Source: Eledone cirrhosa (lineage: Eukaryota). Taken from it: a DNA stretch of 64,000 nt. Below are positions 3,171 to 52,289 of the stretch, in pieces. Where the stretch lies: contig OZ024740.1 in the NCBI GenBank assembly GCA_964016885.1, positions 160,952,001-161,016,000 on the forward strand, given 5' to 3'. The position numbers were made by a program, and so were the translations under genes. The notes under the pieces are model-generated. The model saw only the letters and a list, made by a program, of their open reading frames with translations, searched no databases and was not told the DNA's origin. Numbering within the stretch: the first letter of the stretch is position 1; each line of letters starts with the position of its first letter.

Positions 3171-3301
3171 TGCAAAAGTTTTATTTAAAATTGTTGGGTT
3201 ACAACGAGTAAATATTTTATAACTGATATAAAAGCACTCAACAAGTTTTGGAGTATTTTACGATATTAAACAAATGGAAACTACATTTATAAAACCATAT
3301 T

Positions 3302-3367
3302 TATTTCATTATATATATTTCAGGGATATCATATTAAAAATATGGTATGCCCTCTTCAGACAAAATA
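3302..3367 (-). ncRNA. Type I hammerhead ribozyme motif (PLE type)
   Basis: The minus strand reads TATTTTGT-CTGAAGA-GGGCATACCATATTTTTAATATGATATCCCT-GAAA-TATATA-TA/ATGAAATA. This gives an 8-bp stem I (2 G.U), a canonical core, a long stem II, a palindromic stem III and an AUA cleavage triplet. Confidence 0.8.
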
Positions 3368-3669
3368 CAATATATAAACAGTTTTATAAATAAATTTGAC
3401 ATACCTTAAAACTTTACAACTTCCATTTAAAAAGTTGTTTTGGTAGTGAAAATGTTAAGGACAGTTAGAAAGAAAGACGAAGAGAAAAAAGAAAGAAAGT
3501 GTATAGTGCTAAGGACAGTTAGAGAGGAAGGCGAAGAAAATGAAGAAATGTATGTAAAGAAAAAAACAACAGAGCGAGATGGAGAGAGAGATATGGGATA
3601 GAGAAATATTGAGGAGGTGAAAAATGAATAACGTACAAATGAGAGATTTAGGAGGGAAGGGGGTACTGT

Positions 3670-3714
<45 letters not shown>

Positions 3715-4368
3715 GTTATAGTGTTAAGGATACGGAGAGAAATAAAAATAAAAATAAAAATAAATAAAGAGAGGTAGAAAGAGATATAGGTGGTGGGAGA
3801 AAAGAGGTAGATCGAGTAATAACTATTATACGAGGTGGGAGAGATAGGGGAGGGGTGAGATAAAGGAGGTAGAGTTAAATCAGCCGATACATAAGTCCCG
3901 TCAAGTGTAGAGGGAGGAGGAGAAGAGATATATTCAGAAATAAAGATGATAGTTTTAAAATATTATGTTTCATCAGTCTATCAATTCTTATGAATTAGGT
4001 ATTATAATGTAAATATCAATATTCATGAATGAGACACATATCAATAATGTGTGAAAAAATAATGACTATATGTTTAGTTTAAAAATTCTTAGGTTTATAA
4101 TCAAAATCTGAGATAAAACTTCAAAAAAATACTGAAATACATAAGTATATATGTATTTTCATGAAAAAAGAAAAAGAAAAAAGAGAAAGAAAAAGAGAAG
4201 GTTATCTCAAATTCAAGTTGACATTATAGACACACATGTGAGTTTACGTGATCAGCTCTGTAAATTTTTATTTCACATGAAAATCTTCATTGCGTTACAA
4301 AAGATTCTACCATACATATATGTACATACAGGTATGTCAAATTTATTTATAAAACTGTTTATATATTG

Positions 4369-4435
4369 TATTTTGTCTGAAGAGGGCATACCATATTTTT
4401 AATATGATATCCCTGAAAATATATATAATGAAATA
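4369..4435 (+). ncRNA. Type I hammerhead ribozyme motif, mirror copy of 3302-3367
   Basis: TATTTTGT-CTGAAGA-stem II-GAAA-ATATATA-TA/ATGAAATA, with one extra A in stem III. Confidence 0.75.
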
Positions 4436-4589
4436 AATATGGTTTTATAAATGTAGTTTCCATTTGTTTAATATCGTATATATTTATATATATATATATA
4501 TATCAGGAACAATCGACATTCGTCAAATCGGACCGAGGAAACAATGTTTCCATTGGTCTTTCCAATTGCTAATACTATCTATCGGTCGC

Positions 4590-4724
4590 AACTCCAGGTA
4601 GAAATATCAACGTGAAATAAAGTGTCTTGCTCAAGGACATAACGCATCGCCCGGTCCGGGAATCGAACTCACAACCTCACGATTGCGAATCTAATTCTCT
4701 AACCACTCAGCCACACGCCTTCAC
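4590..4724 (-). mobile_element. tRNA-derived SINE head (family A)
   Basis: The minus strand has an A box TGGCTGAGTGG and a B box GTTCGATTCC, then TGTCCTTGAGCAAGACACTTTATTTC shared with 17949 and 23682. Confidence 0.85.
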
Positions 4725-4839
4725 ATATTTATATATACATAATATATATATGTTGAAAATAGAAAAAGTCATAGGAGTGAAGAGTGCTCTATGTATGTAC
4801 CAGAGCAAAATTTAATGTATAAAAACAATACAATATAAT

Positions 4840-4913
4840 TACCTCATTACCAGAGGTTTCCCGAATAAGACGAATACGAAAGAAACGTCTTCATTCGTTC
4901 GTCGGACGAGGCA
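4840..4913 (-). ncRNA. Type I hammerhead ribozyme motif, left-arm copy
   Basis: Reverse complement of 9031-9104, with one C>T giving a G.U pair in stem I. Confidence 0.8.
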
Positions 4914-6187
4914 ATATAAAACATAGAGAAATATTTGGAATGTCTCTTCAAGAAATGCAAAAAAAAAAAATTTATATATAGATAGATAAAGGTAATACAA
5001 TAGAAATATAAAATATATTAAAAAAATGTTTAAAGAAATTTAGTTAGGTGTGTGTATATGTATGTATATACACTCACAGATATACATATGTATGTATGTA
5101 CAAATGTGTGTGTATAGTGAAAATGTGTGCGTAAATATATGTATGAGGGCAAGTATATCTGTGTATATGTAACCATAGACACAGACATCATATGAGTGTC
5201 TGGTTGACAGGTATACAGAAAAACAGGGTATTAGATACATTATAAAAATATGAAGGCACGCGTATAAACACACACACACGCGCGTACACTTATATGCGGA
5301 AGAAAAAGACGTAAGGGAGTGTAATAGTAAAAAGAAAGTATCATTCTCGATATATTTATAAAAATGGAACAATAATTTAGAAAGAAAAAAATTGCAAAGT
5401 AAAGAAAAGTAAACAAACAAGGTACACGCGTACATACACATATATCTATAAGAAACATATATCTATAAAAAATATATATATACACGCAATACGTGCAGAC
5501 AAAAGCTTATGCAAGCGTACATACACACACAGGATGCACATATATATATACATACACATCGCCCCATGTATATCTAATCACGCGTACGTACGCGACTGTA
5601 TACACACACACACATACACACACATAAGTATATATATATATACATACGCACACATACACATCCATACATGCAGTACGTACACACACACGCACACATACAT
5701 ACACTCACGCACGTTGACCCGGTAACATGCACACACATAAAAATAAGAATGTAAAAAAAGAACATAGATGTAAAAACACAGATATAAAAACACACATACA
5801 TACACATATATATATACACGCACGCGCGCGCACATACGGAGGCATTCGTGTACATATACAGAAAGTATACACACATAAAGACGCTCAGACACATAGATAC
5901 AGGGTGTAAAAACAGCTTTGTGAATAAGTGAGTACAAATATAAAAATGTAAAATTGGCTGCGAAATAACAGACAATATCTGGATGGAAAACGCAAGTGAC
6001 TTGTATAATCAAGTAGTGAAGAAAATAGGGAAGTAAAAGGTGGAAAGTGGAGATATTAGGTAAGTGAATCGGAGAATAAAGGGGGAGGGGGGTTTAGTGG
6101 TGGATGTGAAGTAAAAATAAAAATAAAAATAAAAATAAAAATAAAAATAAAAATAAAAATAAAAATAAAATTAAAATTAATAATAAG

Positions 6188-7698
6188 ACTGATATTGGTC
6201 TTGCCAGCAAACAAATTTTAAATAATATAAATACACACATTAGAAGTAAGTCTAAATTACTCCAATGGATAAATAGCTCTTCCGTAGTACATTGGTTTAA
6301 TAAAATTAAAAACAAAAATAGTTCTAGATTCACCCAATTTGACATTGTAGATTTCTACCCATCTATCACTAAGACTCTTTTAGCGAAAGCTTTAAATTTC
6401 GCTAGAAAGTTTACCAATATCTCTGATATTGAAGAGAATGTCGTCTTGCACACTAGAAACACTCTACTCTTTACTGATAATGACACTTGGGTAAAAATAT
6501 CTAACCCAGAGAGCCCATTCGATGTCTCAATGGGCTCTTATGACAGTGCTGATGTTTGTGATTTAGTCGGCCTATTCCTCCTACACACACTTAAAGAAAA
6601 GTTCCCTAACCATATTTTTGGGCTTTATCGCGACGATGGTCTAATACTTTCCCATACCACCATAGGCCATAACTTAGATATATTAAGGAAAGACTTAATA
6701 AAAACCTTTGCTAGTTTTAATCTTAAAATTACTATTGACACTAACCTTTCCAATGTAAATTTCCTAGATATAAACTTAGATTTGCCTACTGCTTCTTATA
6801 AACCATACCATAAACCTAATGAAAATTTAAATATATAAATAAAGGCTCTTGCCATCCTCCTATAGTTTTTAAAAACCTTATCCCTAATATTAGCCATAGG
6901 ATCTCCACCCTCTCTTCCTCAGAAGCTATTTTCAATAAGGCATCCCCCTACTATAATAAAGCCCTCCAAAATAGCGGTTTTAGCGAACCGATTAAATACA
7001 TACCCAACTATACTAACTCTATTAAACATAAAAATAGGAAAAGAAAAATAATCTGGTTCACACCCCCCTACTAATGTAGGCAAAAAATTCCTAAAGCTCT
7101 TAGATAAATATTTCCCTAGAACACATAGATACTATAAGATCTTTAATAGAAACTGTGTCAAAATTAGCTACTCCTGCGATCCCCCTATTAAATCTTATAT
7201 AATCAACAAAAAATTACCTAGAGAACATCAAAATTGCTCCTGTAGAATCAAAAGTGAATGCCCATTACAAGGTAAATGCAACACCAAAGCCATTGTATAT
7301 GCGGCTAAAGTGACAACCATCAGCAACAACCTACCAGCCACCAGTGAACGATATGTGGGTATGACGCAAGACAAATTCAAAACGCGTTATTACTCACATG
7401 TCGCATCCTTTCGACATCCAGAAAAAAGATTTACAACAGCTCTGGCTAACAGAATATGGGATTTGAAAGATATAAATTGGATTGGTCAATTTTGAACCAA
7501 TCTAAAGAATATACAAGAGGAACAAGAAAATGCACGCTCTGCATAAATGAAAAATATTGGATTTTGCAAAACATTAAATCACCAAAGACCTGCCTAAACA
7601 CAAAGACAGAAATTTTCACCAGTTGCCCACACATGAAATCACACCTGCTTTCCAGCTCATATAAACTTAACACACTTTCAGATACTTATCCTCCATAA
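6188..7698 (+). pseudogene. PLE reverse transcriptase plus GIY-YIG endonuclease, frameshifted and 5'-truncated
   Basis: RT motifs: FTQFDIVDFYPSI, FDVSMGSYDSADVCDLVGLFLL, GLYRDDGL, VNFLDINLDL. Endonuclease: CPLQGKC...IVY...YVGMTQDKFKTRYYSH...CTLCINEK...LNTKTE. Confidence 0.92.
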
Positions 7699-8293
7699 GC
7701 TCTTATTTTTCACTTAAATTATTCTCTTTAAGACTACCTTTTCTGATTTACTTTCATTTTTAACCTTATTATTAATTTTATTTTTATTTTTATTTTTATT
7801 TTTATTTTTATTTTTATTTTTATTTTTATTTTTATTTTTATTTTTATTTTTACTTCACATCCACCACTACCCCCCCCCCTTTATTCTCCGATTCACTTAC
7901 CTAATATCTCCACTTTCCACCTTTTACTTCCCTATTTTCTTCACTACTTGATTATACAAGTCACTTGCGTTTTCCATCCAGATATTGTCTGTTATTTCGC
8001 AGCCAATTTTACATTTTTATATTTGTACTCACTTATTCACAAAGCTGTTTTTACACCCTGTATCTATGTGTCTGAGCGTCTTTATGTGTGTATACTTTCT
8101 GTATATGTACACGAACGCCTCCGTATGTGCGCGCGCGTGCGTGTATATATATATGTGTATGTATGTGTGTTTTTATATCTGTGTTTTTACATCTATGTTC
8201 TTTTTTTACATTCTTATTTTTATGTGTGTGCATGTTAGCGGGTCAACGTGCGTGAGTGTGTACGTACTGCATGTATGGATGTGTATGTGTGCG

Positions 8294-8325
<32 letters not shown>

Positions 8326-9030
8326 CTTATGTGTGTGTATGTGTGTGTGTGTATACAGTCGCGTACGTACGCGTGATTAGATATACATGGGGCGATGTGT
8401 ATGTATATATATATGTGCATCCTGTGTGTGTATGTACGCTTGCATATGCTTTTGTTTGTACGTATTGCGTGTATATATATATTTTTTATAGATATATGTT
8501 ACTTATAGATATATGTGTGTATGTACGCGTGTACCTTGTTTGTTTACTTTTCTTTACTTTGCAATTTTTTCTTTCTAAATTATTGTTCCATTTTTATAAA
8601 TATATCGAGAATGATACTTTCTTTTTACTATTACACTCCCTTACCTCTTTTTCTTCCGCATATAAGTGTACGCGCGTGTGTGTGTGTTTATACGCGTGCC
8701 TTCATATTCTTATAATGTATCTAATACCCTGTTTTTCTGTATACCTGTCAACCAGACACTCATATCATGTCTATGGTTACATATACACAGATATACTTGC
8801 CCTCATACATATATTTACGCACACATTTTCACTATACACACACATTTGTACATACATACATATGTATATCTGTGAGTGTATATACATACATATACACACA
8901 CCTAACTAGATTTCTTTAAAAAAATTTTTTATATATTTTATATGTCTATTGTATTACCTTTATCTATATATATCTAATTTTTTTTGCATTTCTTGAAGAG
9001 TCTTTCCAAATATTTCTCTATGTTTTATAT

Positions 9031-9104
9031 TGCCTCGTCCGACGAACGAATGAAGACGTTTCTTTCGTATTCGTCTTATTCGGGAAACCTCTGGTAACGA
9101 GGTA
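9031..9104 (+). ncRNA. Type I hammerhead ribozyme motif with variant core CCGACGA
   Basis: TGCCTCGT-CCGACGA-ACGAATGAAGACG..CGTCTTATTCGG-GAAA-CCTCTGG-TA/ACGAGGTA. Stem I is 8-10 bp, stem II ~11 bp, stem III CC/GG, triplet GUA. Predicted cleavage is after 9096. Confidence 0.82.
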
Positions 9105-9128
9105 ATTATATTGTATTGTTTTTTATAC

Positions 9129-9170
<42 letters not shown>

Positions 9171-9174
9171 TATA

Positions 9175-9600
9175 TCATCATTATCTTCACCGTTTTACCG
9201 TTTTACGTCCGTTCTTCCATGCTAGCATGGGTTAGACGGGTTGTCCTGTTGTGGGCAGTAGCCGGTCGGCTGACCATGCCTTGCTCATACGGGAACTGAT
9301 TCTGGCTTGATTTCTACAGCTGGATGCACTTCCTAACACTAACCTCATTTACAGTGGTTGCTGGGTGCTTTTATTCCATGGCGCCTACACGTCCACTTTA
9401 CAGTGTGGGCTGGGTGCTTTTTTGCCGTCGCGCCTCCACGACCATTTTGCAGTGTGAGGGTGTGGAGGCATATTGTCTATGTGCTTCAGCTTCAGCTTAT
9501 ACCCGTGTGGGGTCGGGTCTTCTGTATTACTGCGTGACGCCAGAGGTCACGGTCGTGTGTCATCACCTCTGAGAGGTGGAATTCGGTAAGGTCGGCTTTC
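9175..9600 (-). mobile_element. RTE-clade LINE 3' end: last RT codons, long 3' UTR and (GAT)n-type tail
   Basis: The minus strand reads MTHDRDLWRHAVIQKTRP, then a UTR containing GTTAGGAAGTGCATCCAGCTGTAGAAATC shared with SINE family A. Confidence 0.75.
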
Positions 9601-9624
9601 ATATGTATATATATATATATATAT

Positions 9625-10555
9625 TTCGTTTCTGAATTTGGTTAACAAGATTCTTAATCTGAAAACGTGTGTTGAAACCGATATTGTTATACTTTGGGAG
9701 GGTCATGTTGCCAATAAGAAACACACCCTCCAGTAGCTTTCACATCAATTTATTATAAATTAAAATTATAAATTTAGGAATTTATAAATTTCCGGTTGGT
9801 TGGTTGGTTCCACAACCAGACGATTTTTCATATATTGTCAAAGTTCTTTCGTCACACATTCTGTGACCTCTTCAGTGACTGGGAATTCTTTTCTTTGTTT
9901 TTGTGCCTCTCATTTGTTCTGTCCTACGCCATCTTGTTTGTGTGTGTGTTGTGTGCTTAGTTTGCGCATGTGTTATATCCGGGTGTCTGTGTGTGTTTAT
10001 ATTTGTTTATTTATTTGTTTATTTACATGTTACTGGTTGGTTGTTTATTCTATGTATGTGTGTGTTTTCATTTTGTCCTTAATTGTAAGTTGTGATGTTG
10101 CTATTCCATTCATGCTTTCTATTTAATTTTGGTTGGAGTTCATTTATGTTTATTGCCTCTGTAATTTGTCTAAACATTGCGTCTTTTCTGTGTGTAGATT
10201 CTATTTTTATTTCTATGTTCTTTAATTTACCCTTATGTTCTATTTTAGCATGTTGGTAGAGTACAGATGATTCTTTAATATCTTGAAGCTCTCGCCAGTG
10301 TTCATTTATCCGTTCTCCTATACTACGAGCTGTCTCACCTATATACACTATATTCTTATCTCTACAGTGTCCTTCAGTATATCTTATGCTATATACTACA
10401 TTTCTAGTTTTACAGTTAATATGGGGGCTTAGTTTACAGATTATACATTTCTTATCTATACAGGGAGGTCTTTGAAAAGGGTATGTATTGCTAATAAGTG
10501 TTTTTATGGAGGTACCTGGTCTTTCTACTATCTTAATATTGAGTTTATGTTTATC
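9625..10555 (-). mobile_element. PLE 3' fragment: GIY-YIG endonuclease and 3' UTR with a hammerhead
   Basis: ORF 10079..10570: C-x4-C-x2-C...CKTRNVVYSI...YIGETARSIGERINEH...FRQITEA...LNRKHEW. Homologous to 20846..21406. Confidence 0.9.
9837..9879 (-). ncRNA. Minimal type I hammerhead ribozyme motif
   Basis: GTCA-CTGAAGA-GGTCACAGAATGTGTGAC-GAAA-GAAC-TT/TGAC. Confidence 0.75.
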
Positions 10556-10571
10556 TATATATATATACATA

Positions 10572-11030
10572 TGTAGCGACGTGGTTAGTCAGTCTGGTCA
10601 CTACTTCTGATCAGATCCGAGAATAGCCCTTAGAAGGACTGTTATCGAATTCCGTCTGATCAGAGGACTGTTGTCGCATATAGCCCTTAAAAGAACTGTT
10701 GAGGATGGACAGACGAAAGCACAAGTTGAAAGGACGAATCAAGGTGAGATGTAAATTCGATCAGCTATTTATTTTCACATGATGCGACGATACGAGGTAT
10801 AAGGCGTGTGTGAGTGACAAAGCGTGGCAGAGTAAGGGAACAACGATACGCTAGCTGACTCTGCCAAAAGTCGACTGCTGAAGTGTTTGGAACCACTCTA
10901 TTTATACAGAAATAATCGTTTGATGTTTGGCCGCTGTGTAGGCGTTTATTCTGGTAGGTTTTATGAGTTAGCGGGCTAACAGGTAGATGGCGCTGTATAT
11001 TTCACAGATGTTATTTCCGGTGGCTGTACA
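10572..11030 (-). repeat. 3' LTR (459 bp, TGTA...TACA), preceded by a purine-rich PPT-like tract GGCAGGGTGGTAA (11031-11043)
   Basis: Terminal TG...CA inverted ends; shares ~130-150 bp with 15376-15525. Confidence 0.8.
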
Positions 11031-11953
11031 TTACCACCCTGCCAGATCTTTTGTACAACAAAAGAGCGAAATATCGTATAGTAATGGGCCAGTGGTGCAT
11101 TTGTCATGACAATAGCCCCGGGAGTGTCCAGCACGTTGTGAAATTGTGTGATCAGTGAGTACAGGACAGAGTCGATGTAGAGATGATATGGCAAGATGTG
11201 TGTGTCAGGAAGAGAAAAAAGAAATAAACTATAAAATGACTTTGACCAGATTTATGCAGGCCTGATGAATGAGCCTGTTGCAATTTGGGTTGAGCTGCCT
11301 GTGAATTGCGTGACAAAAAGTCTAACTGGGCAGTGAAGATAACCGTAATGTGTGAACTGAATGGCCGTAAGCATGCTGCCTAAAAGTAACAGTTTGCTCC
11401 ACAGCATATGACTTGAGCGAATGCATGTGGTAAAAAAAAGCGAAGCATTCTCGAGCTATGAGTGAATGTGTACGTGAAAAAAGAAGGCCAGTGTTTTGAG
11501 GATGCGATTTGTGAAATGCGTGATCAAAGAGAAAACATTTTGTAGTGTAAGAGTTAGAGGGACACAAATATCTATTGCTCCGTGTATGAACCAAAAGGTG
11601 AAACAAACGTGGTTTTGTAGTGTGCATGAAAAACAGAATATGTACAGGCCTTGTATGTATATAAAAATTATGGCAATTTACACAATCAATGTTACAGAAC
11701 ACGAAAAATACAAATCTTTGCAAAACGAGAGAGAAAAAAAAAATGTTATACACAATGATATACACAATGTTTGTTCTTACATAGTGTTTGTAATAAATAA
11801 TGTTCTTCGTGACATGAGCACATGGTCACTAAAAATTGCAATTGTTCAAGCAGAAAGTTCACTGTATTTGAAACTGGAAATAGTAAACACAAGAAAAATG
11901 GAAATGTTTTGCACGAAGAATGATTAAGAAACTCACTTGAGGTTAACGGTAAT

Positions 11954-12900
11954 TCACATATTGTGCCAACTTGGCGGGCCAATGGACGCGTCGTCCACTT
12001 CTCGTGACTGGAGATGAAACAGGTGGCTCGCTGGGACAGCAATCTGTTGGAGTTTCTGATGTAGAGACTGTAACAGTATCCATGATGGCTTTTTTAATCT
12101 GTCCACGCTGACAGAATTCTGTTTACCATCTAGATCAAGAATAAAATATTTCGGATATTTTTTTAGAACACGATAAGGGCCAGAATATGGAGGTCGAAGA
12201 TGAGCTGAGATGGTGTCGTTTCGAACGAAAACGTGTGTCCAATCTTTAATGTCTGAAGGTAGGTGTGTGGCCGTGTTCTGTTGACGGGTGCTTGCAGGAG
12301 CAAGGTGAGACATATATTGTCGAAGACGGTGTACGTATGATCCTGGGTCTGGAACATCCTGAGGAGAGATGGGAGCAACCATCTGACCGGGTAGAACCAG
12401 GGTGGTGCCGTACACTAATTCTGCAGGTGTGTGTCCGAATTCCTCCTTAACGGTGGATCGAATGCCCAGAAGGATGAGTGGTAGGTATTCAAACCAATGG
12501 GTCTTGTCTGGGTATGCTTTTATTGCAGCTTTCAATTGGCAATGGAATCTTTCCACGAGACCATTAGCTTGCGGGTGATAAGCTGTCGTGCGGATGTGTT
12601 TACATACTAAGAGGCGAGTCAGTTCCCTGAAGAGGTGGGAGTCAAATTGGCATCCTCTGTCCGTTGTTATCTTCGCTGGGGTGCCATAACGTGATACCAA
12701 GTGTAAAACCAAAGTTTTAGCAACTGTTTCCGCTGAGGTATCATTTATGGCAAAAGCCTCAGGCCAACGAGAAAATCGATCTATGCAGGTGAGCAAGTGT
12801 GTGTAGTTCTGTGATGGTGGTAGAAGTCCGACGATGTCGATATGCACATGATGAAAACGTGCATCAGGTTGCGCGAATGTGCCGAGTGGAGTTTTGATGT
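11954..12900 (-). pseudogene. Gypsy integrase core (rve), frameshifted relative to RH
   Basis: [46 protein letters not shown], and a GPY/F motif PYSGPYRV. Confidence 0.93.
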
Positions 12901-14435
12901 GTCTGTGGGTGGACTTTGGCTTTCTGGCAGGCAATGCAGCTCCTGGACAAGTCGCGCACGTCCTTGTTAATGTTAGTCCACACAAAACGAGCAGAGATGG
13001 GTTTCTGTGTAGCCCGGATTCCTGGGTGAGACAAGCAGTGTAAAGCAGAAAAAACTTGTCGACGATGCATCTGTGGTACGTACGGTCGTTCATGACCGGT
13101 AGAAAAGTCGCACCAAATGGGAACTTGCTGAAACTTGAGGGATGGCGAATCTCGGATCTTGATAAACTCTTCGTCAGTCTCTTGGTCAGCTGCGATCTGT
13201 TGAAGGTCGATGCCTGAATGCACATGTATTGCGTTCAGCTGGATTCGGGACAGGGCGTCGGCTGCTACGTTGTCTGATCCATTGATATGCCGAATATCAG
13301 TTGAATATTGGGAGACAAAATCGAGGTGTCGGAGTTCTCTCTGTGAATGTCGATCAGGTTTGGTACGGAACGCATAAACTAATGGTTTATGGTCCGTGTA
13401 GATCATGAAATCTGATCTTTCGAGCATGTGCCGAAAATGCTTAACCGAAAGATAGGTTGCCAAGAGTTCGCGGCCAAAGGTACTGTGTTTCGTTTCTGCC
13501 GGTTGCAACCGCTTAGAAAAGAAGGATAAGGGTTGCCACACGCCGTCGACATGTTGTTGTAGAACGCTTCCAACTCCCGTGTCTGATGTGTCCACTAGCA
13601 GCGAAAGAGGAGCGCCAGACCTGGGGAAAACGAGCATGGAAGCGTTTGCAAACATTTCCTTCAGGCGGTTAAAAGATGTTAATTCTTCCTCGTTTAGAGT
13701 AATCTCTTCGTTTTTGCGAGTCCGGTTACGAAGAAACTCCGTGAGGAGTCTGGCTGCGTCGGAACAATGAGGGATGAACCGCCTATAAAAATTCACCAGA
13801 CCGAGGAATTCATGCAGTTTCCGAAGTGATGTAGGTGCGGGAAAACTGCGGATAGCTTCTACTTTCTCGGGAAGTGGACGAATGCCATCTTTATCGATGG
13901 TGTGCCCGAAGAAGGACAGTGAAGGAACGCTGAGAAGGCATTTGCTGGGGTTGATTATGATACAGTACTCAGCCAAACGTTGGAAAAGGAGATCTAAGTG
14001 CTTCTTGTGCTCTTGCTCGGAAGTACTTGCTACCAGCACGTCGTCAATATACGCGTATACGAAGGGTAGATCGCGTAACACGGTGTCAATAAACCGCTGA
14101 AAGGTTTGTGCAGCGTTGCGCAGACCGAACGGCATTCGCAGGAATTAGAATAAACCGAACGGTGTTGTGATTGCGGTCTTCGGAATGTCTGCAGGCTCCA
14201 TAGGTATCTGGTTATATGCACGCACCAAATCTACATTGGAAAAGAAGCGTGCGCCTTGCAGAGAGGCAAAAAAATCGTGCAGGTGAGGTACAGGGTAATT
14301 ATCGGGTACTGTAGAATTGTTAAGTGCACGATAATCCACACATGGTCGCCAATCATTCTCGTTTTTTTTAGGAACAAGGTGTAGGGGTGCAGACCAGTTG
14401 CTGGAGGAAGGGCGAATGATTCCGAGGTCCAGCAT
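12864..14435 (-). pseudogene. Gypsy RT-RNase H-integrase zinc finger, interrupted by a stop at 14145-14147
   Basis: [61 protein letters not shown]-x3-HPG...CIACQ. Confidence 0.94.
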
Positions 14436-14439
14436 GTGT

Positions 14440-15316
14440 TGGAACTCCTGCTTGGCGTTCTCAATCGGTCTTGAGGCAGTCTCTTTGGTCGGGAAGCTGT
14501 GGGTGGTCCTCTTGTCTCGATGTGGTGCGTGACACTGTGCTTAATAGGACCATCCTTAAATACCGGGCGAGTGATGTCTGGGTATTTCTGGAGAATGCCG
14601 TTGTACCGCGAAGGCTCTGACTGGCAAATTACAGGGCTCACTGTGGATTGCGTGGTAAATATACCTCTCACAGTGAGGTTTGTGGTGGTGGCAATAAGCC
14701 TCCGGTTCTTCATATCCACCAGAAGGTTGAAGTGGTGGAGGAAATCGGCTCCTAGGGTAGGGGTCGGCAGGTCTGCCACGACGAACACCCATTGAAAACG
14801 CCGCCTCAGGCCTAAATTGAGGGTCAGGGATTTTTCCCCGAAAGTCAGAATTGACGATCGGTTCACTGCCTGCAGAAAGGACGGTGTTGGGTGTCTTTTG
14901 CCCGAGATTAGTGAAACAGGAATAACACTAACCTGGGCTCCTGTATTCATGAGGTAACGGATGCCTGTCGCCTGGCCGTTAATAAAATATAGACGACTTT
15001 TCTTTTCAGTACCAGGGGTGAACGTCGTCGCTAGGCCCTGGGTGGCATTCCGGAAAGAGCAAGGGGCTTTGCACTTAGATGTCTGTGCGCCGAAATTTGT
15101 GTGATACCAGCAGAGGTTGCCAGGCACACGATTTTGACTGGGACTACTGGATCTTTGAATGTGAAAAGGCCTGGATCGACTGTTGCTGCGTCGCCGGTGT
15201 ATTTGAAAGGTCAAGTTCTCTACTTGATTCGAGAGGGCTTTAATCTGACCAGCCCGCTCACTGATCATAGCCCGCAGCTCTGAAATCTCGGCCTCTGTCG
15301 TTGGTGACATGTCCAT
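14440..15316 (-). pseudogene. Gag C-terminus (CHCC knuckle) and aspartic protease with D>N in the catalytic motif
   Basis: LCWYHTNFGAQTSKCKAPC, YLMNTGAQVSVIP (DTG>NTG), PTLGADFL. Confidence 0.88.
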
Positions 15317-15356
15317 GTTGATATTTTCTTAGGTGCTGTCTGGTTGCGCGTTCGAC

Positions 15357-15373
15357 TCACGTTCGGGTCACCA
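15357..15373 (-). promoter_or_regulatory. Primer binding site, tRNA-Trp-like
   Basis: TGGTGACCCGAACGTGA lies 2 nt after the LTR end ...TCGCTACA and resembles the tRNA-Trp PBS TGGTGACCCCGACGTGA. Confidence 0.8.
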
Positions 15374-15375
15374 AT

Positions 15376-15525
15376 TGTAGCGATGTGGTTAGTCAGTCTA
15401 GTCACTACTTCTGATCAGATCCGAGAATAGCCCTTAGAAGGACTGTTATCGCATACGCTCTGATCAGATCTGAAGATAGCCCTTAAAAGGACTGTTGTCG
15501 CATATAGCCCTTAAAAGAACTGTTG
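15376..15525 (-). repeat. Truncated 5' LTR (U5-side ~150 bp only), running into (TA)n
   Basis: Matches 10572-10701, then abruptly becomes microsatellite. Confidence 0.85.
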
Positions 15526-15545
15526 TATGTATATATATATATATG

Positions 15546-15584
<39 letters not shown>

Positions 15585-15589
15585 GTATG

Positions 15590-15674
<85 letters not shown>

Positions 15675-15701
15675 GTATATATATATATGTATATATATAT
15701 G

Positions 15702-15766
<65 letters not shown>

Positions 15767-15840
15767 GTATATATATATATGTATACATATATATGTACAT
15801 ATATATGTATATATATATATGTATATATATATATATGTAT
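15526..15840. repeat. (TA)n/(TATG)n microsatellite
   Basis: Directly visible. Confidence 0.95.
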
Positions 15841-15977
15841 TAGAAAGTGAGGGTTTTTTTTACAAAATGAAAAATAACCGAGGTGTCCTACACGAGTGAA
15901 AGTATAAAGAAAAAGAGATGAAATCGAAAATGCAACTGGAGTCTTATTTTTAAAAAAAATATATATATTATTTGGTT

Positions 15978-16015
15978 CCTTTACCGGTTTCGCAGTTCTT
16001 CTGCTTTTCAAAAGG
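15978..16015 (-). ncRNA. Minimal type I hammerhead motif with a U3-A8 core variant, in a probable orphan PLE 3' end (~15842-16280)
   Basis: CCTT-TTGAAAA-GCAG-AAGAA-CTGC-GAAA-CCGG-TA/AAGG. All stems are perfect, stem III is palindromic, triplet GUA. Confidence 0.8.
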
Positions 16016-16819
16016 TGAGTTGAGATGGAGGGTCTGTGGTTTTTCTCACATCTCTCATATATGTATATATATATGTGGAATAGAATGGAACGAAATTTCA
16101 TTTCTCACTCTTAGTACGGCATTTACTTAAATGTAAGTATGTATGTATCCTGTATCCTGTGTCAGTGTTGAACAAAAAGGTGACGTGGTTGCCTAAACAC
16201 TGTACGGCGTAATTCGGGCTGTTTGTTTGTTTACAAACAAACACACCGAGCATTATAATAAATGTTCGGTAAACCGATACGTGCATATATATATGTGTGC
16301 ATGTATGTATATATATACATACTAGTGTACGTCTGTATACATATATGTATGTACGTATACATACATACTTATATATATATATATATGTATAAATATATAT
16401 ATATATTTATTTATATATATGTATATATATATATATGTATATATATATGTGTATATATATATACTTATATATATGCATATATGTATATATATATATATAT
16501 ATATACTTATATATATACATACATATATATGTGTATATATATATGTGTGTGTGTGTGTGTGTTTTATTGATAGAATTGAAGGTATAATCCTTATAGTGAC
16601 TGGCTATTTTTATCTCAATAGAGAATAATGGAGCAATCAAATGATTTTCTGTTGAGATTAAATCAGTAAATCACTGCAAGAAATTACACCTTCAATTCTC
16701 TCAATGGGAAAATAAATATTTTACATATATATTCAGTTTTTCTTCTACGAATAACATATCCTCGTAGATATTGAGTCATCCTCCATCAGATTTGACGATG
16801 ATTGTTCTAATGATCAATT

Positions 16820-17125
16820 AACAAAACAGCTTGCTCATGAAATTAACATGTAAGTGTCTGAGCATTACACAGATACTTGTGTCCATAACACTATTTTGAG
16901 GGAGATTCAGCATAATACAGTGTGTAACAAGGTTGGTCCATTGAATTACAGGTATAGTCCATCTGATGAGCTTCCAAACAATTTCGTCTACCCAGATTCC
17001 CTCTCTAGGCATAAGTATATCCAAGGCTATGGTGAAATGACACTTACCCAAGATGCCATGCAGTGAGCATGAACCCAGGACATCATGGTTTCCAATTGAA
17101 CTTCTTAACCATTCTGCCATGCTGT
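16820..17125 (-). mobile_element. Degenerate tRNA-SINE
   Basis: The minus strand has TGGCAGAATGGTTAAG (A box), GGTTCATGCTC (B-like) and TCTTGGGTAAGTGTC. Confidence 0.6.
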
Positions 17126-17804
17126 AACCACATTCCTTACTATATATATATGTGTGTGCATATTAACACTCACTTTCTCGATCAATCTTTCTTTCAACCT
17201 TTGTCCATTTCTCTCTTTGCATCTCACTTAGTAATTAGGACAGAAACATTATTTTGGGTACCGTTCTCCATGGTTGAGACTATTTCTAATATTAGAATAT
17301 TAATTGACAACTAACTTTTCAAGCAAAACTCAGACTTCCAATTTTACGACCCCTATCCCACACACACCCAACTTTGGTCAATGCTACACTTCAATAAATT
17401 CACTAACTATAAACATGACATTGAAAATGCAGTAACAACAACTACAAGAACAAAACCCTTAACCAATGAAGTAGTGAAATAAAGTATTAATATGGAAATA
17501 GCTAATAATAATATTTTAACACAGAATAATTATAAATAACTTTCTAAACAAGCAGCAGAAAATGGTAATGAGTAAGTTTAAAAAAAAAGAACATTGAAAA
17601 ACATTAAAGGTAGGACTAGCTATTACTATGAAGAATTATCAAAGAAGTCTGTTAATACTTTCATTTGTATTAATTATGATGATTTAATTATGCAAAAGAA
17701 TTTGTATATTGCTATATATATCAGACATAAAAGGGAAGATTTACTAATAATTACTCCAAAGGAATTTGATAGTAGACAGTACATTTACACACACATGTAT
17801 GAAT

Positions 17805-17857
<53 letters not shown>

Positions 17858-17874
17858 TACATATATATATACAT

Positions 17875-17907
<33 letters not shown>

Positions 17908-17948
17908 CATACATACATACATACATATATATATATATATATGTGTGT

Positions 17949-18336
17949 GAAGGCGCATAGCTTAGTGGTTAGAGCATTGGGCTTGCAATCGAAAGGTTGT
18001 GAGTTCAATTCTCGGACTGGGTGATGTGTTGTTTCTTTGAGCAAGACACTTTATTTCATATTGCTCCAGTTTACTCAGTTGTAGAAATGGGATGATAGGA
18101 CTGGGGTCCCTATCATTCCACTGCAAAATGGACGTGTAGGCGCCACGGAAAAAAAGCACCTAGCACTCACTGTAAATGAGGTTGGTGTTAGGAAGGGCAT
18201 CCAGCTGTAGAAATCAAGCTAGAATCAGTTCCCGTATGAGCAAGACAATGTTAGCCGACCGGACAATGCCCACAACAAGACAACCCATCTAATCCATGCT
18301 AGTGTGGAACAACGGACGTAAAACGGTGATGATGAT
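17949..18336 (+). mobile_element. Full-length tRNA-SINE family A with an RTE-derived 3' part and (GAT)n tail
   Basis: A box TAGCTTAGTGG and B box GTTCAATTC. The body matches 23682-24010. The 3' ~210 bp matches the RTE UTR at 9175-9400. Confidence 0.9.
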
Positions 18337-18351
18337 ATATATATATATATA

Positions 18352-18721
18352 TAGAAAAAAGTATGACCCCGATGGCAGAGCTCAAGCCGTTTCGACGACT
18401 ATTTCTGGACTAAATTAGAAATTTTAGCCTGGTGAATAAATAGCCGAACTTTTCAAGGGGGTACTTCTTTATACGGGAAGATTGTAGTTGTCAAGAGGAT
18501 TGGTTAAAATTTGTTGTAAACACAAATAAGTCTATCATGGCATTTGGTGAGAAGTAGGGGTGGCTGAAATTGCCTGTAGAACAATAGGGGAATGAGTGGA
18601 GCGGTCAAGCGTTGAAAGTGATATGTATACATCAGATTCTAAGGATAGTGTATGAAGTGGGGGAGGGAGGTTATAGAATAGGTAAATCGAAAGAGAGTAG
18701 GAGACAATAAAAGATACTAGA

Positions 18722-18761
<40 letters not shown>

Positions 18762-20288
18762 GATAGTGAGAAATGAATAAAGAAATCACAATGCTATCTT
18801 ACATTTACAGGTTAATAAGTTGAGAATAGAAAAAACTTATAGAAATTACAAAACAGATACAAACTTAAAGGGTTTTTTTACACATCTGCTATAAATAGTT
18901 AGTAAAACGTATTCGGCTAATTCTATCTTAAAATAACAGGGGTGGGGGAACTGATGCTACAAGGCCCGATGGGCTGCATCGGGGTAGGCGAAAGGGGAAA
19001 GCAGACGAGGAAGAAAATAGAGGGTCGAAGGAAGTGATAGGATGAGACAGAGGGAAGGAGACCAAGGGGAAAAGAAAAGATACATTTACCTATGTAAGCT
19101 GGGGTTTCCCCTAGCTTATTCGGCAAGTATGTGTGGGGGTGGGTATCAGCCTTTGTCTACCCACCGGGGTCGTTATAGGGTTTGAAGGCGAGGTAAGTCC
19201 TACGCAATCTGTGTTTGCATGCGGTTACCAGTTCATCTTTCTTGTTTAGGAGTTGGTCCTTCGGAAACAGCATTTGTAATGTTTCCTCCGAGCATAAGTT
19301 ACACGGACAGCGTCCTCCCGTGTAAGAGTTAGCTCTGGACAGTAAGCTCCAAGTGAGATTGTAGGTTATATTGTTATCTTGGAGGTCCCAGATGTGGCCC
19401 GAAAGTGTAGTGGCATGTCGCCGAACCGGGTTTCGGAAAGTGTGTCGGTGTTGGTAGAGCCGAGTCTTGAAGTCACACGCAGTTAATCCTATATAAGCTT
19501 TGTTGGAGGTGTCCGTCCTCACGTTGCACTGGTAGATCACATTACATTCTCGGCATTTGTTGTTGAGGGGGCACGTGGATCTATCAGGGTAGTTACACAC
19601 TTTCGGGCCCATCGGGCCTTGTAGCATCAGTTCCCCCGCCCCTGTTATTTTAAGATAGAATTGGCCGAATACGTTTTACTAACTACTTATAGCAGATGTG
19701 TAAAAAAAACCTTTAAGTTTGTATCTGTTTTGTAATTTCTATAAGTTTTTTTCTATTCTCAACTTATTAACCTGTAATTGTAAGATAGCGTTGTGATTTC
19801 TTTATTCATTTCTCACTATCTAATTTTATATATATATATATTTATTTATTTCTAGTATCTTTTATTGTCTCCTACTCTCTTTCGATTTACCTATTCTATA
19901 ACCTTCCTCCCCCACTTCATACACTATCCTTATAATCTGATGTATACATATCACTTTCAACGCTTGACCGCTCCACTCACGCCCCTATTGTTCTACAGGC
20001 AATTTCAGCCACCCCTACTTCCCACCAAATGCCATGAAAGACTTAGTTGTGTTTACAACAAATTTTAACCAATCCTCTTGACAACTACAATCTTACCATA
20101 TAAAGAAGTACTCCCTTGAAAAGTTCGGCTATTTATTGACCAGACTAAAAATTCTAATTTAGTCCAGAAATAGCCGTCGAAACGGCTTGAGCTCTGCCAT
20201 CGGGGTCATACTTATTCCTATTTCCCACTCTACTACTCTAAGTTTGAGTACTCTGGTGTGTTATGGTCCATTTGGTTCCTTACCACAA
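18352..20288 (-). mobile_element. Palindromic PLE: ~620-bp inverted arms (18352-18974 / 19607-20220) around a GIY-YIG fragment
   Basis: The arms are reverse complements. The right arm extends ~70 bp further. (TA)n flanks both sides. Each arm has a degenerate hammerhead-like motif TTGAAAA-long stem II-GAAAC (18378-18452 on -, 20110-20192 on +). Confidence 0.9.
19157..19606 (-). pseudogene. PLE GIY-YIG endonuclease domain (C-terminal fragment)
   Basis: CPLNNKC...NVIYQC...YIGLTACDFKTRLYQH...CNLCSEE...LLNKKDE. Same subtype as 7250-7698. Confidence 0.92.
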
Positions 20289-20310
20289 TCCCTTTGTTAT
20301 ATATATATAT

Positions 20311-21365
20311 ATATTGTTATACTTGGGGAGGGTCATATTTTTGTAATATTGCCAGAATTAATAACAGAACACAATCACTGTTTGGTTGGTTTTCGCTTTT
20401 CGCTTCTGTGTCTTCTATATCGGTAATCAAATTTATTCGGTCCTCAATGTTGCCATTCACTGACCAACGGTCAAAAATAATACAGATACAATATAGACAC
20501 AAACACTTATATATAGTTTATCATAAATCTTTCGTTGCACATCTGCAACATCGTCAGTGGTGCTATAGATTCCTCCCGTTGCATTGTATTTCTACGCCAT
20601 CTTTATTTAGTCTGATTATATATTTATTTATTTGTTTGTTTGTTTATTTTATTTTGTCTTCTTTGCGCATTCGTTTGCGTGTGTGTATAGTGTTTTGTTT
20701 GATGTGTGTTCGTGATTGGGTGACTGTGTATTGGTTAATGTGTTCTATGTTTACTAGTGTGTGTTTATATGTGTTTGTTGTTATTGTGCTTGTGTATGTA
20801 TTTATTTATTTATTTATTTATCTATTTATTTATTTATTTATTTATTTATACTTCTCTTAGGTCAGTGTTGTTTGTTTGGGTGTTGTTGTTATTCCATTCA
20901 TTCTTTCTGTTTAGTCTTGTCCTTCTAAGTTCTATTTCACTGGCCTCTCTGATTTGCCTATCTGCTGGGTCATTTCTATGTTTAGATATTATTCTAATTT
21001 CTATGTTGTCTATGTTACCGTCGTGTTGTTGTCTGGCATGTTCGTATAGTACTGACCCGTTTTTTCGTCCTTTTAGTTCCCCCCAGTGTTGGTCTATCCT
21101 TTCACCTATGCTACGAGCTGTTTCGCCTATGTATGTTGTTGTCATGTTTCTGCAAGTGCCCTCTGTACATCTTATGCTATAGACTACGTTTCTAGTTTTA
21201 CAGTTTATCCGGGAGTTTACCTTACATATGATACATTTCCTATTAGTACAGTGGGTTTTCTTAAAAGTGTAGGTTTTGCTAATCAGGGATTTTATGGTGG
21301 TTCCTGGCTTTTTTACCACCTTAATCTTTAAGTGGGTCTTTCTCAGGGCCTTTCTACACTGGTTA
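20311..21365 (-). mobile_element. PLE 3' fragment: GIY-YIG and 3' UTR with a hammerhead; same family as 9625-10555
   Basis: ORF 20846..21406: CKTRNVVYSIRC...YIGETARSIGERIDQH...LNRKNEW. It shares the terminal motif ATATTGTTATACTT(T/G)GGGAGGGTCAT with 9681-9706. Confidence 0.9.
20520..20561 (-). ncRNA. Minimal type I hammerhead motif
   Basis: ACCA-CTGACGA-TGTTGCAGATGTGCAAC-GAAA-GATT-TA/TGAT. Confidence 0.7.
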
Positions 21366-21647
21366 GCTAATTTACCCTCCAGGGGTAGCATCCACAAACA
21401 TGACACTCTGGTATCTCTGGTTGTCGTACCATGAGGTGGCTTTCCCTATCTTATGTCTAGCCCTATCTAAGCTATTCCAGGATTTGCTCCGTCAGCTAGA
21501 TCCGAACTAAGCCACCAGCTGACAAAATGGGCGGAGCTCAGCCATCAGGGTCATAACTCTTTTCCTATTACCTACATATGTATACAAACATACATACATA
21601 TAAGAAGTGTAAGTCAACAGGGTAAAATTAGCTTTGTTTATTCATAT

Positions 21648-21710
21648 TTGCTGCTATATATATTTCAGTGATAGCCATTATTCAACAGCTATGACCTCAT
21701 CAGGCAGTAA
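21648..21710 (-). ncRNA. Type I hammerhead ribozyme motif with canonical core
   Basis: TTACTGC-CTGATGA-GGTCATAGCTGTTGAATAATGGCTATCACT-GAAA-TATATA-TA/GCAGCAA. Confidence 0.85.
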
Positions 21711-21885
21711 GAACTTGAACAGAAAAAAAAACAGGAAAACATAATGTGGTAATAGATTTTACCCTGTTAATTCATTGATATGTTCTGATCCAGAGTGTGG
21801 TGTTAGTCCTCTAAGGAACTTTTAGTTCCTTAGAGGACTAACACTATTACAACATTATGTTTTCCTGTTTTTTCTGTTAAAGTTC

Positions 21886-21948
21886 TTACTGCCTGGTGAG
21901 GTCATAGCTGTTGAATAATGGCTATCACTGAAATATATATAGCAGCGA
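21886..21948 (+). ncRNA. Hammerhead motif, mirror copy with an A6G core mutation (CTGGTGA)
   Basis: Same stems as 21648-21710; the core substitution is likely inactivating. Confidence 0.7.
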
Positions 21949-22104
21949 ATATGAATAAATGAAGCTAATTTTACCCTGTTGACTTACACTTCTTGTTTTT
22001 ACATTACTCTGGTGTAAACAGACCAACCTGCGCATCTCGTTGAGTGCTTCAGCTTGCATACTGAGGTGTCAGCAAACAACCAACATATAATTAGATTGTA
22101 TATA

Positions 22105-23181: not shown

Positions 23182-23681
23182 CCTAAAATAGTATAGAAAA
23201 GGAATAGTGGAACATATCTTACAATGCCGCTTGACACCCAGTATGTGGCACACTGTACCTAGCCTTATCATTATTCTATGCATATATACCGATTAGATGC
23301 AATTGAGAAAATACTGAATCATACTAGACATAGCACTCACACACCCTGGTTTAATCTAGACATAACACTAGTGAAGATATAACATGTATTATCACACTGA
23401 AGCTAACAATAATAATTAACATCTGTATCGAGACTACATGATAGAAAAGACTGTGTAACGTGCTTTAAAATATTAAATCAAACTACATAAACAGCCTAAA
23501 CTAATCGAGACATTTACCAACTAAAGTATTACTGGCATTCCCCTTTTCTCACTCTATAATTTAAATTCCTGTTTGTATACATTCCTATTTTTTATTTTCT
23601 ATTCCTTTACTCAAATTTATTATTTATGTCTTTTCACTCTTTCAGATTCCTATATGTATGTATGTATGTGTATATATATAT

Positions 23682-24060
23682 GGAGGCACATGGCTTAGTG
23701 GTTAGAGCATTGGGCTTGCAATCGAAAGGTTGTGAGTTCAATTCTCAGACCTGGTGATGCGTTGTTTCCTTGAGCAAGACACTTTATTTCACATTGCTCC
23801 AGTTTACTCAGCTGTAGAAATGAGATGATAGGACTGGGGTCCCTATCATCCACTGCAAAGTGGTCGTGGACGTGCACGGCAAAAAAGTACCCAGCCCACA
23901 CTGTAAAGTGGACGTGTAGGCACCACGGCAAAAAAGCACCCAGCACTCACTGTAAATGAGGTTGGTGTTAGGAAGGGCATCCAGCTGTAGAAATCAAGCC
24001 AGAATCAGTTCCCATCCCATCCTTGCAAGCAGGGAAAAGCGGGCGTAAAATGATAATGAT
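23682..24060 (+). mobile_element. tRNA-SINE family A with an alternative RTE tail
   Basis: Head matches 17949. It ends CCTTGCAAGCAGGGAAAAGCGGGCGTAAAATGAT, like the LINE ends at 32062-32105 and 52540-52590. Confidence 0.9.
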
Positions 24061-27100: not shown

Positions 27101-28262
27101 TCAGTGTTACTGGGAACTTTAACATCAATGGTGATGTGGATAGGCTATACTTCTCACGCAAGGAAGGTGGCCGGGGTCTAAAATCAATATTAACAACATA
27201 TGAGACCCGGATAGTAACACTGGAGCAACACCTTCAACAGAGGAAAAAGGTTGGCAACCATCTTGCCCAGGTTTATGAGCATGAAAAAAAAATATCATTA
27301 GAATAGCGACTGATCTGGAGGAGAGATGTGGAACAAAGCCTGATATAAATCTCTCACCCAGAGAAATCGGAAGATCCTATTCAATGTTCAAACAAGATTA
27401 AAAAATTGACCAATTTACAGAAAAAGTTGTTCATGGATACTTGAGACGTAAAACACAGACCATAGAGGGGATAAACCACTCAAAAAGCCTGGCATGAAGT
27501 TCCGACAAGTCTATGACATCACACCTTGAGGGATATCTCTATGCAATACAGGAACAAGAAATCCCTACCAAATATCGGCTGCACAAAATAGGAAGGCCAG
27601 CAGCTGACAATAAATGTAGGCTATGTAAAACAAAGATCGAGGATGTAAGCCACATTGTTGCCAGCTGCGAGTGAATGTCATCTCGCTACTACCTCCCCAT
27701 GAGACACGATGGGATAGCTAGAACCATCTGGAACGCACTTCGGAAAACAAAATTAACAACAAACGAGGAAGAATATATTGAGACAGATGGCACTAAGGAA
27801 TACTGGTGGAACCTGAAAATAAAAACTGCCACCAAATTAAAGCACAACCAGCCTGATATTGTTGTTTGGGACCACACATTGAAAACGTGTTCTGTTGTGG
27901 AGATCAGCTGCCCACTTGATGTAAACGTTGTCAGAAAAATACAGGAGAAGGAGGACATCTACGGACCATTGATGAGGAGTTTACAAATCCAGTATCCAAG
28001 ATACACCTTTAGCTTCATACCCATCATTATTGGAGCTACGGGTTATATACCAACCCGCTTGGACCAAAGTATGACTGAACTTGGATTTGCGGACAAAAAG
28101 CGCAGCTCCCTAATTCATAGTCTACAAATGGCTGCGATAGCTGGCACCTTCAAAATTTGCAAAACATTCTTGCGATTCAAGGGATGACAATTTCTTTTCT
28201 TTTACAACCTTGCCACCAGGAAGGTGGCCGGTCAAAAAAATATACTCGAAATTAAGAGAAAG
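24102..28262 (+). mobile_element. Near full-length RLE-type non-LTR retrotransposon (R4/Dong clade), disrupted
   Basis: A single long ORF region with RT, a CCHC knuckle and a restriction-like endonuclease. Flanked by (CATA)n-rich repeats. Confidence 0.9.
24679..28187 (+). pseudogene. RT-CCHC-RLE polyprotein with in-frame stops (25870, 25988) and a frameshift (~27290)
   Basis: KSPGPD, NYRPIAC, WLDYQKAFDSVPH, GIFQGDSLS, HLFFVDDLKLY, YRYLG, RLYFSRKEGGRGL, CRLCKTKIEDVSHIVASC, RHDGIA, KHNQPDIV, VEISCP, KEDIY. Confidence 0.93.
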
Positions 28263-28318
28263 AGATATACATACATACATACATACATACATACATACAT
28301 ACAACATACATACATACA

Positions 28319-28927
28319 TGGTGGCTGCCGACTCGTTTTCGAGTACGGCCACTACTTTATATCCATGTAGGAGAACCCCTACCGATGCGTTGAACAAGTG
28401 TGACTTTTCAGTCCAGCCAGCGACTTGAAGACTCTAGTACAAACACTACATTTGTGACAATTACTGACACATAGTGCTGGGCCCATGGTACCATGTGATT
28501 ACAAGTGCAGAGAGATTTCCATATATAAAGCAATGCTTGTGTCGTGAAGTTTTTATAGTGAGCAAAGGCACTGCACAAAGCCAGTCCCACTCTCTTAACC
28601 AAGATGATATTTATCAAAAAGAAGAACAAGTCAACATCATTGGATACCATCAGGGTTGCAGGTGTTATATCAGAGTTTTCCTTCTCCTAGAATTCTGCCT
28701 TGACAAAGGCTAAGGGGTCATCTCTCCCGGTGATTTTGAATGGCCATTGACTCTTAAGAGCTCCTTTGCCCTTTGACAGGTTTTGTTTTTAGTCCTGCAG
28801 GATATCCAAAGTCACCCTCCTCACCAAGAAACCTTGGTGGGGTTGCCAGTTTAGTCGCCAACGACCCGACCATGAGCCAGGTTGTACTGGGATACATGTT
28901 ACCAGTAGCACCAACTGGTGACCTGAC
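28319..28927 (-). mobile_element. ~610-bp non-coding RTE-derived non-autonomous retroelement, copy A
   Basis: Contains the RTE 5' UTR-type motif TCTAGGAGAAGGAAAACTCTGAT (recalled family motif) and a (TATG)n tail. Highly similar to copy B. Confidence 0.75.
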
Positions 28928-28944
28928 ATACATACATACATACA

Positions 28945-52145: not shown

Positions 52146-52278
52146 CTAGCTGTCGAAACGGCCGAAGCTCAGCCATCGGGGTCCTGACTCTTTTCCTATT
52201 ACTCACTCTACTACCCTAAGTATTGAGTACTCTGGTGCATTATAGTCCACCTGGTATCTTACCACACCCTCTTTATTA
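52146..52278 (+). mobile_element. Orphan PLE terminal segment homologous to 20170-20288 and 21515-21570
   Basis: GTCGAAACGGC..AGCTC.GCCATCGGGGTC...CACTCTACTAC.CTAAGT.TGAGTACTCTGGTG. Confidence 0.75.
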
Positions 52279-52289
52279 TATATGTGTGT

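Follow-up and report, generated by a model that had tools for sequence, protein, structure and literature searches.

Head-to-head insertions of four Penelope-like element families in the genome of Eledone cirrhosa, and their possible origin in two-ended priming

A 64,000-nucleotide (nt) stretch of the Eledone cirrhosa genome (assembly GCA_964016885.1, contig OZ024740.1, forward-strand positions 160,952,001 to 161,016,000), referred to here as the window, carries between its positions 3172 and 22090 four insertions, A to D, in each of which two copies of the same terminal sequence stand head-to-head and face outward. Sequence comparison identifies them as shortened (5'-truncated) copies of four divergent families of endonuclease-bearing Penelope-like elements (PLEs). 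This layout has already been described, and A to D are new families in a known arrangement. The analysis below concerns the origin of the layout, and suggests that each hairpin is probably built anew at the moment of insertion, from two separate complementary DNAs (cDNAs).

Layout and identity of the four insertions

Self-alignment of the window recovered inverted arm pairs at all four sites where the original prediction had placed fold-back insertions, and the extra extension that it described was seen on a single arm in each. This extension, or tail, is the same sequence that comes after the pseudo-long terminal repeat (pseudo-LTR), and an extension on one end is a feature of endonuclease-bearing (EN+) PLEs. 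Each family has two alternative 3' ends, namely a core end and a tail end lying 75-100 nt beyond it. All outer ends of A to D abut TA/CATA-rich runs, in agreement with the microsatellite setting predicted earlier. The features are as follows, in window coordinates.

3172-4330, minus strand: element A, long copy; PLE 3' non-coding end, then tail (3258-3172)
4330-4478, plus strand: element A, short inverted copy; stops at the core end; junction overlap of 1 nt
3259-3406 and 4330-4478, inverted: element A arms; 148 matches, 0 mismatches, 1 insertion or deletion (indel); one-sided tail 3172-3258
4752-6186, minus strand: element B, short inverted copy; 3' untranslated region (UTR) and shortened tail (4812-4752)
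6188-9132, plus strand: element B, long copy; 5'-truncated reverse transcriptase (RT)/GIY-YIG remnant, 3' UTR, core end
6188-6835 (RT) and about 7050-7600 (GIY-YIG), plus strand: element B coding remnants; frameshifted, 35-42% to the family A protein by tblastn
About 4813-6186 and 7778-9132, inverted: element B arms; 1322 matches, 27 mismatches; one-sided tail 4752-4812
18351-19598, minus strand: element C, long copy; C-terminal GIY-YIG part, 3' UTR, core end
19607-20300, plus strand: element C, short inverted copy; tail 20222-20300
18351-18974 and 19607-20221, inverted: element C arms; 590 matches, 24 mismatches; one-sided tail 20222 to about 20300
21602-21820, minus strand: element D, left arm; stops at the core end
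21824-22090, plus strand: element D, right arm; internal deletion of 44 nt; tail 21995-22090
21602-21755 and 21844-21994, inverted: element D arms; 145 matches, 6 mismatches; one-sided tail 21995 to about 22090
21800-21844, no strand: element D, fold-back apex; 45-nt palindrome

The two copies of element B meet at a microhomology of 4 nt and those of element C are separated by 8 added nt (19599-19606), while element D is a near-perfect fold-back whose apparent "interior" is the 44-nt deletion in its right arm. The cargo that the original prediction saw shrinking from one element to the next is given up as a feature of the insertions: it appears because the longer 5'-truncated copy holds sequence that the shorter copy lacks, and these are ordinary copies of autonomous families.

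In the rest of the genome, where searches with the A to D queries gave 1169-2857 first-look candidates per query, longer relatives of all four families continue upstream into a single frame coding for RT and, C-terminally, a GIY-YIG domain, as expected from the PLE identity first assigned to them. Copies aligning along this frame were found for family A (L159), B (L187), C (L228 and L222) and D (L270), and include element B of the window. The description of the families as unrelated holds for the DNA of the arms, apart from the hammerheads of A and D, and fails for the proteins, which are homologous and show 33-52% identity to that of family A. Pfam did not call the B and C pieces in the window, and their RT/GIY-YIG assignment rests on motifs and homology. 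The best named protein homologues are from a cephalopod, and the homologue search yielded no clade names. A cysteine-rich linker motif, present before the GIY-YIG domain in A, B and C and degenerate in D, is given as a feature of the Neptune and Nematis types (PMC8557442), and hints that the families may belong to one of these types.

Frequency, ends and junctions across the genome

The frequency of the layout was tallied by hand in 10 kb around 134 hits, one per locus, after removal of the window, second arms and close duplicates. Inverted arms were present at 68 of the 134 loci (A 23/27, B 11/35, C 21/35, D 13/37); among the others a few were tandem (tandem pseudo-LTRs at L159, L187, L193 and L222) and the rest single. 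The sample consists of top-scoring hits, skewed towards young copies, and gave a two-armed insertion up to double the chance of inclusion, so that 68/134 is an estimate on the upper side of the inverted share. The suggestion that fold-backs are common here, as a routine product of integration, is upheld by this count, together with the uniqueness of the junctions in long copies.

The outer ends follow a rule. After exclusion of 11 inverted loci with unresolved ends, 55 of the remaining 57 had one core end and one tail end, two had two core ends (L174, L224) and none had two tails; leaving out family D, for which the query forced a tail, the proportion is 46/48. Further sets gave 14/15 outward pairs with core and tail (among the first 100 exact C ends, where all 15 close pairs faced outward, that is, head-to-head and not tandem), 19/19 (three shared with the first set) and 4/4. 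A family A core-end pattern (3009 matches) mixed in sister subfamilies with tails starting TA, and was tallied for four pairs only. Tiny inverted ends, sought in single copies, were found only at L208 (17 nt), with a borderline case at L204 (13 nt, within the control range).

The arm with the core end exceeds the arm with the tail in many pairs, as in elements B and C of the window, and at four loci (L178, L182, L208, L234) the tail-bearing arm comprises nothing but 22-57 nt of tail and has no overlap with its partner. Since each arm holds sequence that the other lacks, neither can be a copy of the other, and two templated syntheses are therefore needed. The arms are related in another respect: minor subfamily variants occur in both arms in 21/21 (A), 18/20 (B), 36/52 (C) and 7/18 (D) informative cases, a case being a varying site at which either arm has the minor variant, with a random-pairing expectation of 0.11-0.18. 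Among 2000 shuffles none reached the observed sharing in A, B or C, and 18 did so in D. Such sharing fits the use of one RNA, or of sister RNAs from one donor, as template for both arms.

The junctions of long insertions all differ, with overlaps of 0-6 nt or short, often templated inserts, and those of A to D were seen at no other independent sampled locus. Family A inserts of 61-77 nt (L121/L122, L141, L290/L291) consist of short repeated copies of nearby element sequence. They resemble the templated inserts of polymerase-theta end joining. The 5' stops show more regularity. In family A, 29 of 160 copies carrying a 26-mer begin at the same position, namely the A of TCACT, a pseudo-LTR motif called initiator-like in PMC3846280; in family D one start site accounts for 11 of 37 copies; and in family C 39 of 41 arms end 55-68 nt from the end (incidental C-type ends, at 99 loci picked for other families). 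A G that might derive from a cap is present at the A stop in 14 of 30 cases; it is mostly explained by the inverted arm and was rejected as evidence. Stopping at the hammerhead cut site does not fit the three stops, which lie 40-170 nt upstream of the cut.

Family C also forms hairpins of only 116 nt, here called minis, in which two exact 30-nt junctions recur at 296 and 648 loci (at least 944 minis), with no matches in the control. A single tail is present in 39 of 40 minis, and two tails in none. In 40 sampled loci with the 296-locus junction, the polarity of the centre relative to the tail was 24 to 14, with one other and one unresolved; several subfamily backgrounds were represented, with their variants mirrored in both arms, and no recurrent arm-specific variant was found in these loci away from the TA edge. 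Judged from these sequences, the minis of this junction fit repeated formation rather than one mobile palindrome. The 648-locus junction has a polarity of 8 to 1 among nine loci, which leaves some room for a master element. Junctions are repeated in family A as well, on different contigs (L304/L312, L297/L313), and the tail may lie on either side of a repeated junction (L294 versus L297).

Formation of the hairpins

These observations are probably best accounted for by two separate cDNAs that are joined head-to-head at each insertion. The GIY-YIG endonuclease would nick both strands of a (TA)n run, and both DNA ends would then serve as primers for reverse transcription, with the core start site used by one end and the tail start site by the other; the template would be a single RNA, or sister RNAs from one donor. 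Synthesis of the two cDNAs would halt at different points, and microhomology of 0-6 nt, or a short templated insert, would link their 3' ends. For the minis, priming would take place at start sites near the RNA 5' end, and both cDNAs would run off at the start site within the pseudo-LTR; run-off at a promoter-proximal 5' end would thus yield minis of fixed length without a separate class of element.

The closest alternative in print is self-priming (PMC3846280, PMC8557442), whereby a single cDNA, or an antisense RNA template, snaps back and is copied into a hairpin, and resolution by the endonuclease leaves the tail one-sided. Palindromic junctions (the D apex and the C minis) and the variants common to both arms agree with such an origin, as do two family C loci counted among the 57 (L213, oriented 6289-6448; L229, oriented 8500-8633), in which an inverted copy of the locus's own flank, 130-160 nt long, sits between the core end and the tail-bearing piece. 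Snapping back of one cDNA, however, cannot explain core arms that are longer than tail arms (elements B and C) or arms that do not overlap (L178, L182, L208, L234), although a version with a long antisense template is compatible with the data. Two primed cDNAs are favoured by the one-core-one-tail rule, by arms that do not overlap and by the variants that both arms share, and self-priming as the general route is considered rather unlikely. The same two inverted flanks, along with the two core+core pairs, might also be expected if an inserted single copy had acquired its second arm later, through replication fold-back or an inverted duplication; this leaves unexplained the one-core-one-tail rule, the private sequence of the arms and the precise element ends on TA runs on both sides, and is very improbable.

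It is likewise improbable that the fold-backs, or at least the 116-nt C minis, form a non-autonomous palindromic class copied as a unit from master elements. The exact junctions at hundreds of loci, the family A junctions repeated between contigs and the 8 to 1 polarity of the commoner C junction in the few loci seen would speak for such a class, which the original prediction had entertained as strand-symmetric non-autonomous elements. Against it stand the occurrence of the 296-locus junction in both polarities and on several mirrored backgrounds, among which no arm-specific variant recurs away from the TA edge, the position of the tail to either side of repeated A junctions, and the window's four junctions, each seen nowhere else among independent sampled loci. 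The proposed comparison of junctions, in which an identical junction at several loci would indicate mobilisation as a unit and unique ones formation at each insertion, is accordingly borne out on the second count, by the long copies, and misleads on the first, because the sampled junction is found with either polarity and in differing subfamily backgrounds. The mismatch-free arms of element A might point to artefacts of assembly from fold-back reads, which can hardly be credited, as the arms of B, C and D differ by 2-4%, with indels, and the tail asymmetry and family-specific ends recur at many independent loci. Reads and contigs of four sequencing runs included none bridging the A or C junctions, but these runs share at most 0.44 of words and are uninformative either way.

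Several points weigh against the formation of the hairpins from two primed cDNAs. Roughly half of the sampled loci are single copies, and two pairs have core ends on both sides. The inverted flanks at L213 and L229 mean that true snap-back copying also occurs. Discordant informative sites (16 in C, 11 in D) may come from recurrent mutation or from two different templates, and gene conversion between the arms could be another source of shared variants; the private differences of up to 2-5% held by the arms of older families are a point set against conversion. The C stop lies at the foot of a predicted RNA hairpin, a position that a structural stall would explain as well as an RNA 5' end, and weak pairing, at about -0.9 kcal/mol, is predicted between the two C cDNA ends. 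The supporting in vitro work (PMC11167929) concerns another clade.

Whether PLEs follow this route as a rule is evenly balanced. Under such a rule, a single reaction, in which two-ended priming uses two fixed start sites and one RNA source, would produce the tail, the inverted pseudo-LTR and the thousands of fixed-length minis alike, and the minis would represent run-off to the transcription start of the element itself.

Hammerhead motifs, neighbouring elements and known systems

Hammerhead-like motifs point outward 94-102 nt inside each core end:

3302-3367, minus strand: A hammerhead; canonical core at 3359, predicted cut after 3310, minimal palindromic helix III
4369-4435, plus strand: A hammerhead in the other arm; core at 4377, predicted cut after 4427, one extra A
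9029-9106, plus strand: B hammerhead-like motif; core at 9039, non-canonical (U4 read as C)
Core at 4905, minus strand: B mirror motif, hammerhead-like
20104-20218, plus strand: C hammerhead; U3-A8 core at 20116-20122, predicted cut after 20201
18468-18354, minus strand: C mirror hammerhead, the copy in the other arm
Core at 21703, minus strand: D hammerhead in the left arm
Core at 21893, plus strand: D hammerhead in the right arm; core mutated

The hammerheads expected near the arm ends are supported for A and D, which fit the type I descriptor in a motif scan and are 75% alike over 52 nt (E 9e-5), and for C by manual folding. The motif of the 18-20 kb element, formerly taken as degenerate, folds as a complete type I hammerhead (3 kcal/mol above the minimum) with a U3-A8 core, G10.1-C11.1, a long helix II, a 5-bp helix III and, in most copies, a GUC site; the free position 7 is A in 23/35 copies and C in 12/35, and the window's element carries a cut-triplet variant common to both arms. 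It was missed by the first descriptors because they limited helix II to 60 nt and demanded C3-G8. The B motif departs further from the canonical form: all 14 variants listed have C at position 4, and a base of helix II is non-canonical as well. A check by covariance models did not favour the motifs: Rfam recognised no hammerhead family in the whole window (E<=1), nor a hammerhead in 4280-5000 or 19850-22100 (E<=10), and the assignments are based on the descriptor and manual folding. A transcript ending in a ribozyme able to fold, as once envisaged, is not what folding predicts. For A, C and D, the fold-back RNAs are predicted to form no pairs within the motif, 96-100% of the hammerhead bases being paired with the opposite arm, so that the transcripts are likely to be plain long hairpins in which the hammerheads are buried. 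Elsewhere in the window, a canonical hammerhead-like match lies at 46077 (minus strand) and a hammerhead-like motif near 9860 (minus strand).

Two PLE-like fragments of another type, which carry GIY-YIG and are 74% alike, occupy 9680-10560 and 20311-21571; positions 21517-21571 point outward and are similar to a C-type end, and another C-type end with tail (52147-52283) is 82% like 20171-20304. Further inverted pairs and palindromes (36069-36203/38403-38538, 55633-55957, 30424-30530, 16566-16705) may be more fold-backs. Other elements include a Ty3/gypsy-type LTR element on the minus strand (10572-15525; LTRs 10572-10701 and 15376-15525) with interrupted RT, RNase H and integrase frames, and a non-LTR retrotransposon with an RT domain (24664-29574), followed by a 650-nt tandem duplication whose unit is also present inverted at 2319-2706. 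Copies resembling tRNA-derived short interspersed nuclear elements lie at 4608-4753, 17919-18058, 23654-23796 and 37956-38086.

The window's insertions share most of their features with canonical EN+ PLE units (Arkhipova 2013, PMC3846280; Craig 2021, PMC8557442): RT followed by a C-terminal GIY-YIG domain, 5' truncation, an adjacent head-to-head inverted copy, a tail at one end, a junction palindrome, (TA)n targets, partial tandems and TCACT in the pseudo-LTR. An inverted copy is there said to be found "often", head-to-head being the most frequent arrangement, and the fold-back layout as a common or routine one is also in print in these papers and in PMC4209133. The tails differ in length (about 75-100 nt here, 30-40 in the canonical units), and a tail that is optional in those descriptions is part of a nearly fixed one-core-one-tail arrangement in the two-armed insertions studied here. 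PLE hammerheads (Cervera and De la Pena 2014, PMC4209133) are likewise of type I and placed in the terminal repeat, and include minimal palindromic helices III as in A and D, the U3-A8 variant as in C, and pairs on opposite strands 100-700 bp apart, as here; C departs from them in its long helix II and 5-bp helix III, and the C at position 4 of B was not found in the available text.

In L1 twin priming, cDNA synthesis on the element RNA is primed from two target ends, and microhomology serves to join the products head-to-head. The L1 pieces do not overlap; here, unlike in L1, both cDNA pieces would begin at the 3' end, and the end is duplicated for this reason. The Poseidon PLE protein of the green anole (Frangieh 2024, PMC11167929), which belongs to another clade and has an AT-rich target as here, cuts and extends both strands in vitro, with initiation at two sites bounding the tail; no link between the two start sites and the two arms of inverted insertions was found in the accessible parts of that report. 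The two-cDNA reading was stated in no paper found, in a search made mostly without subscription papers and without supplements. Non-LTR retrozymes (bioRxiv 10.64898/2026.07.22.740005) are likewise short, non-coding and PLE-derived, with type I hammerheads, but form head-to-tail tandem arrays, whereas the pairs here are head-to-head, and the ribozyme's 5' half is absent from the C minis. An identification as retrozymes was rejected on the former ground, as the pairs are not tandem units each with a complete hammerhead.

The counts bear on an open question that is raised in the PLE literature itself, the origin of the tandem or inverted ends and of the tail, and the results give direct predictions for the existing in vitro PLE system. 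Identical junctions are no proof of a unit resembling miniature inverted-repeat transposable elements; in genomes of this kind, many of the short hairpins are by-products of PLEs, and repeat annotation may misfile them. If two-ended priming is indeed the rule, about a thousand exact-junction records are held in this genome, from which the rules of the reaction would be directly readable.

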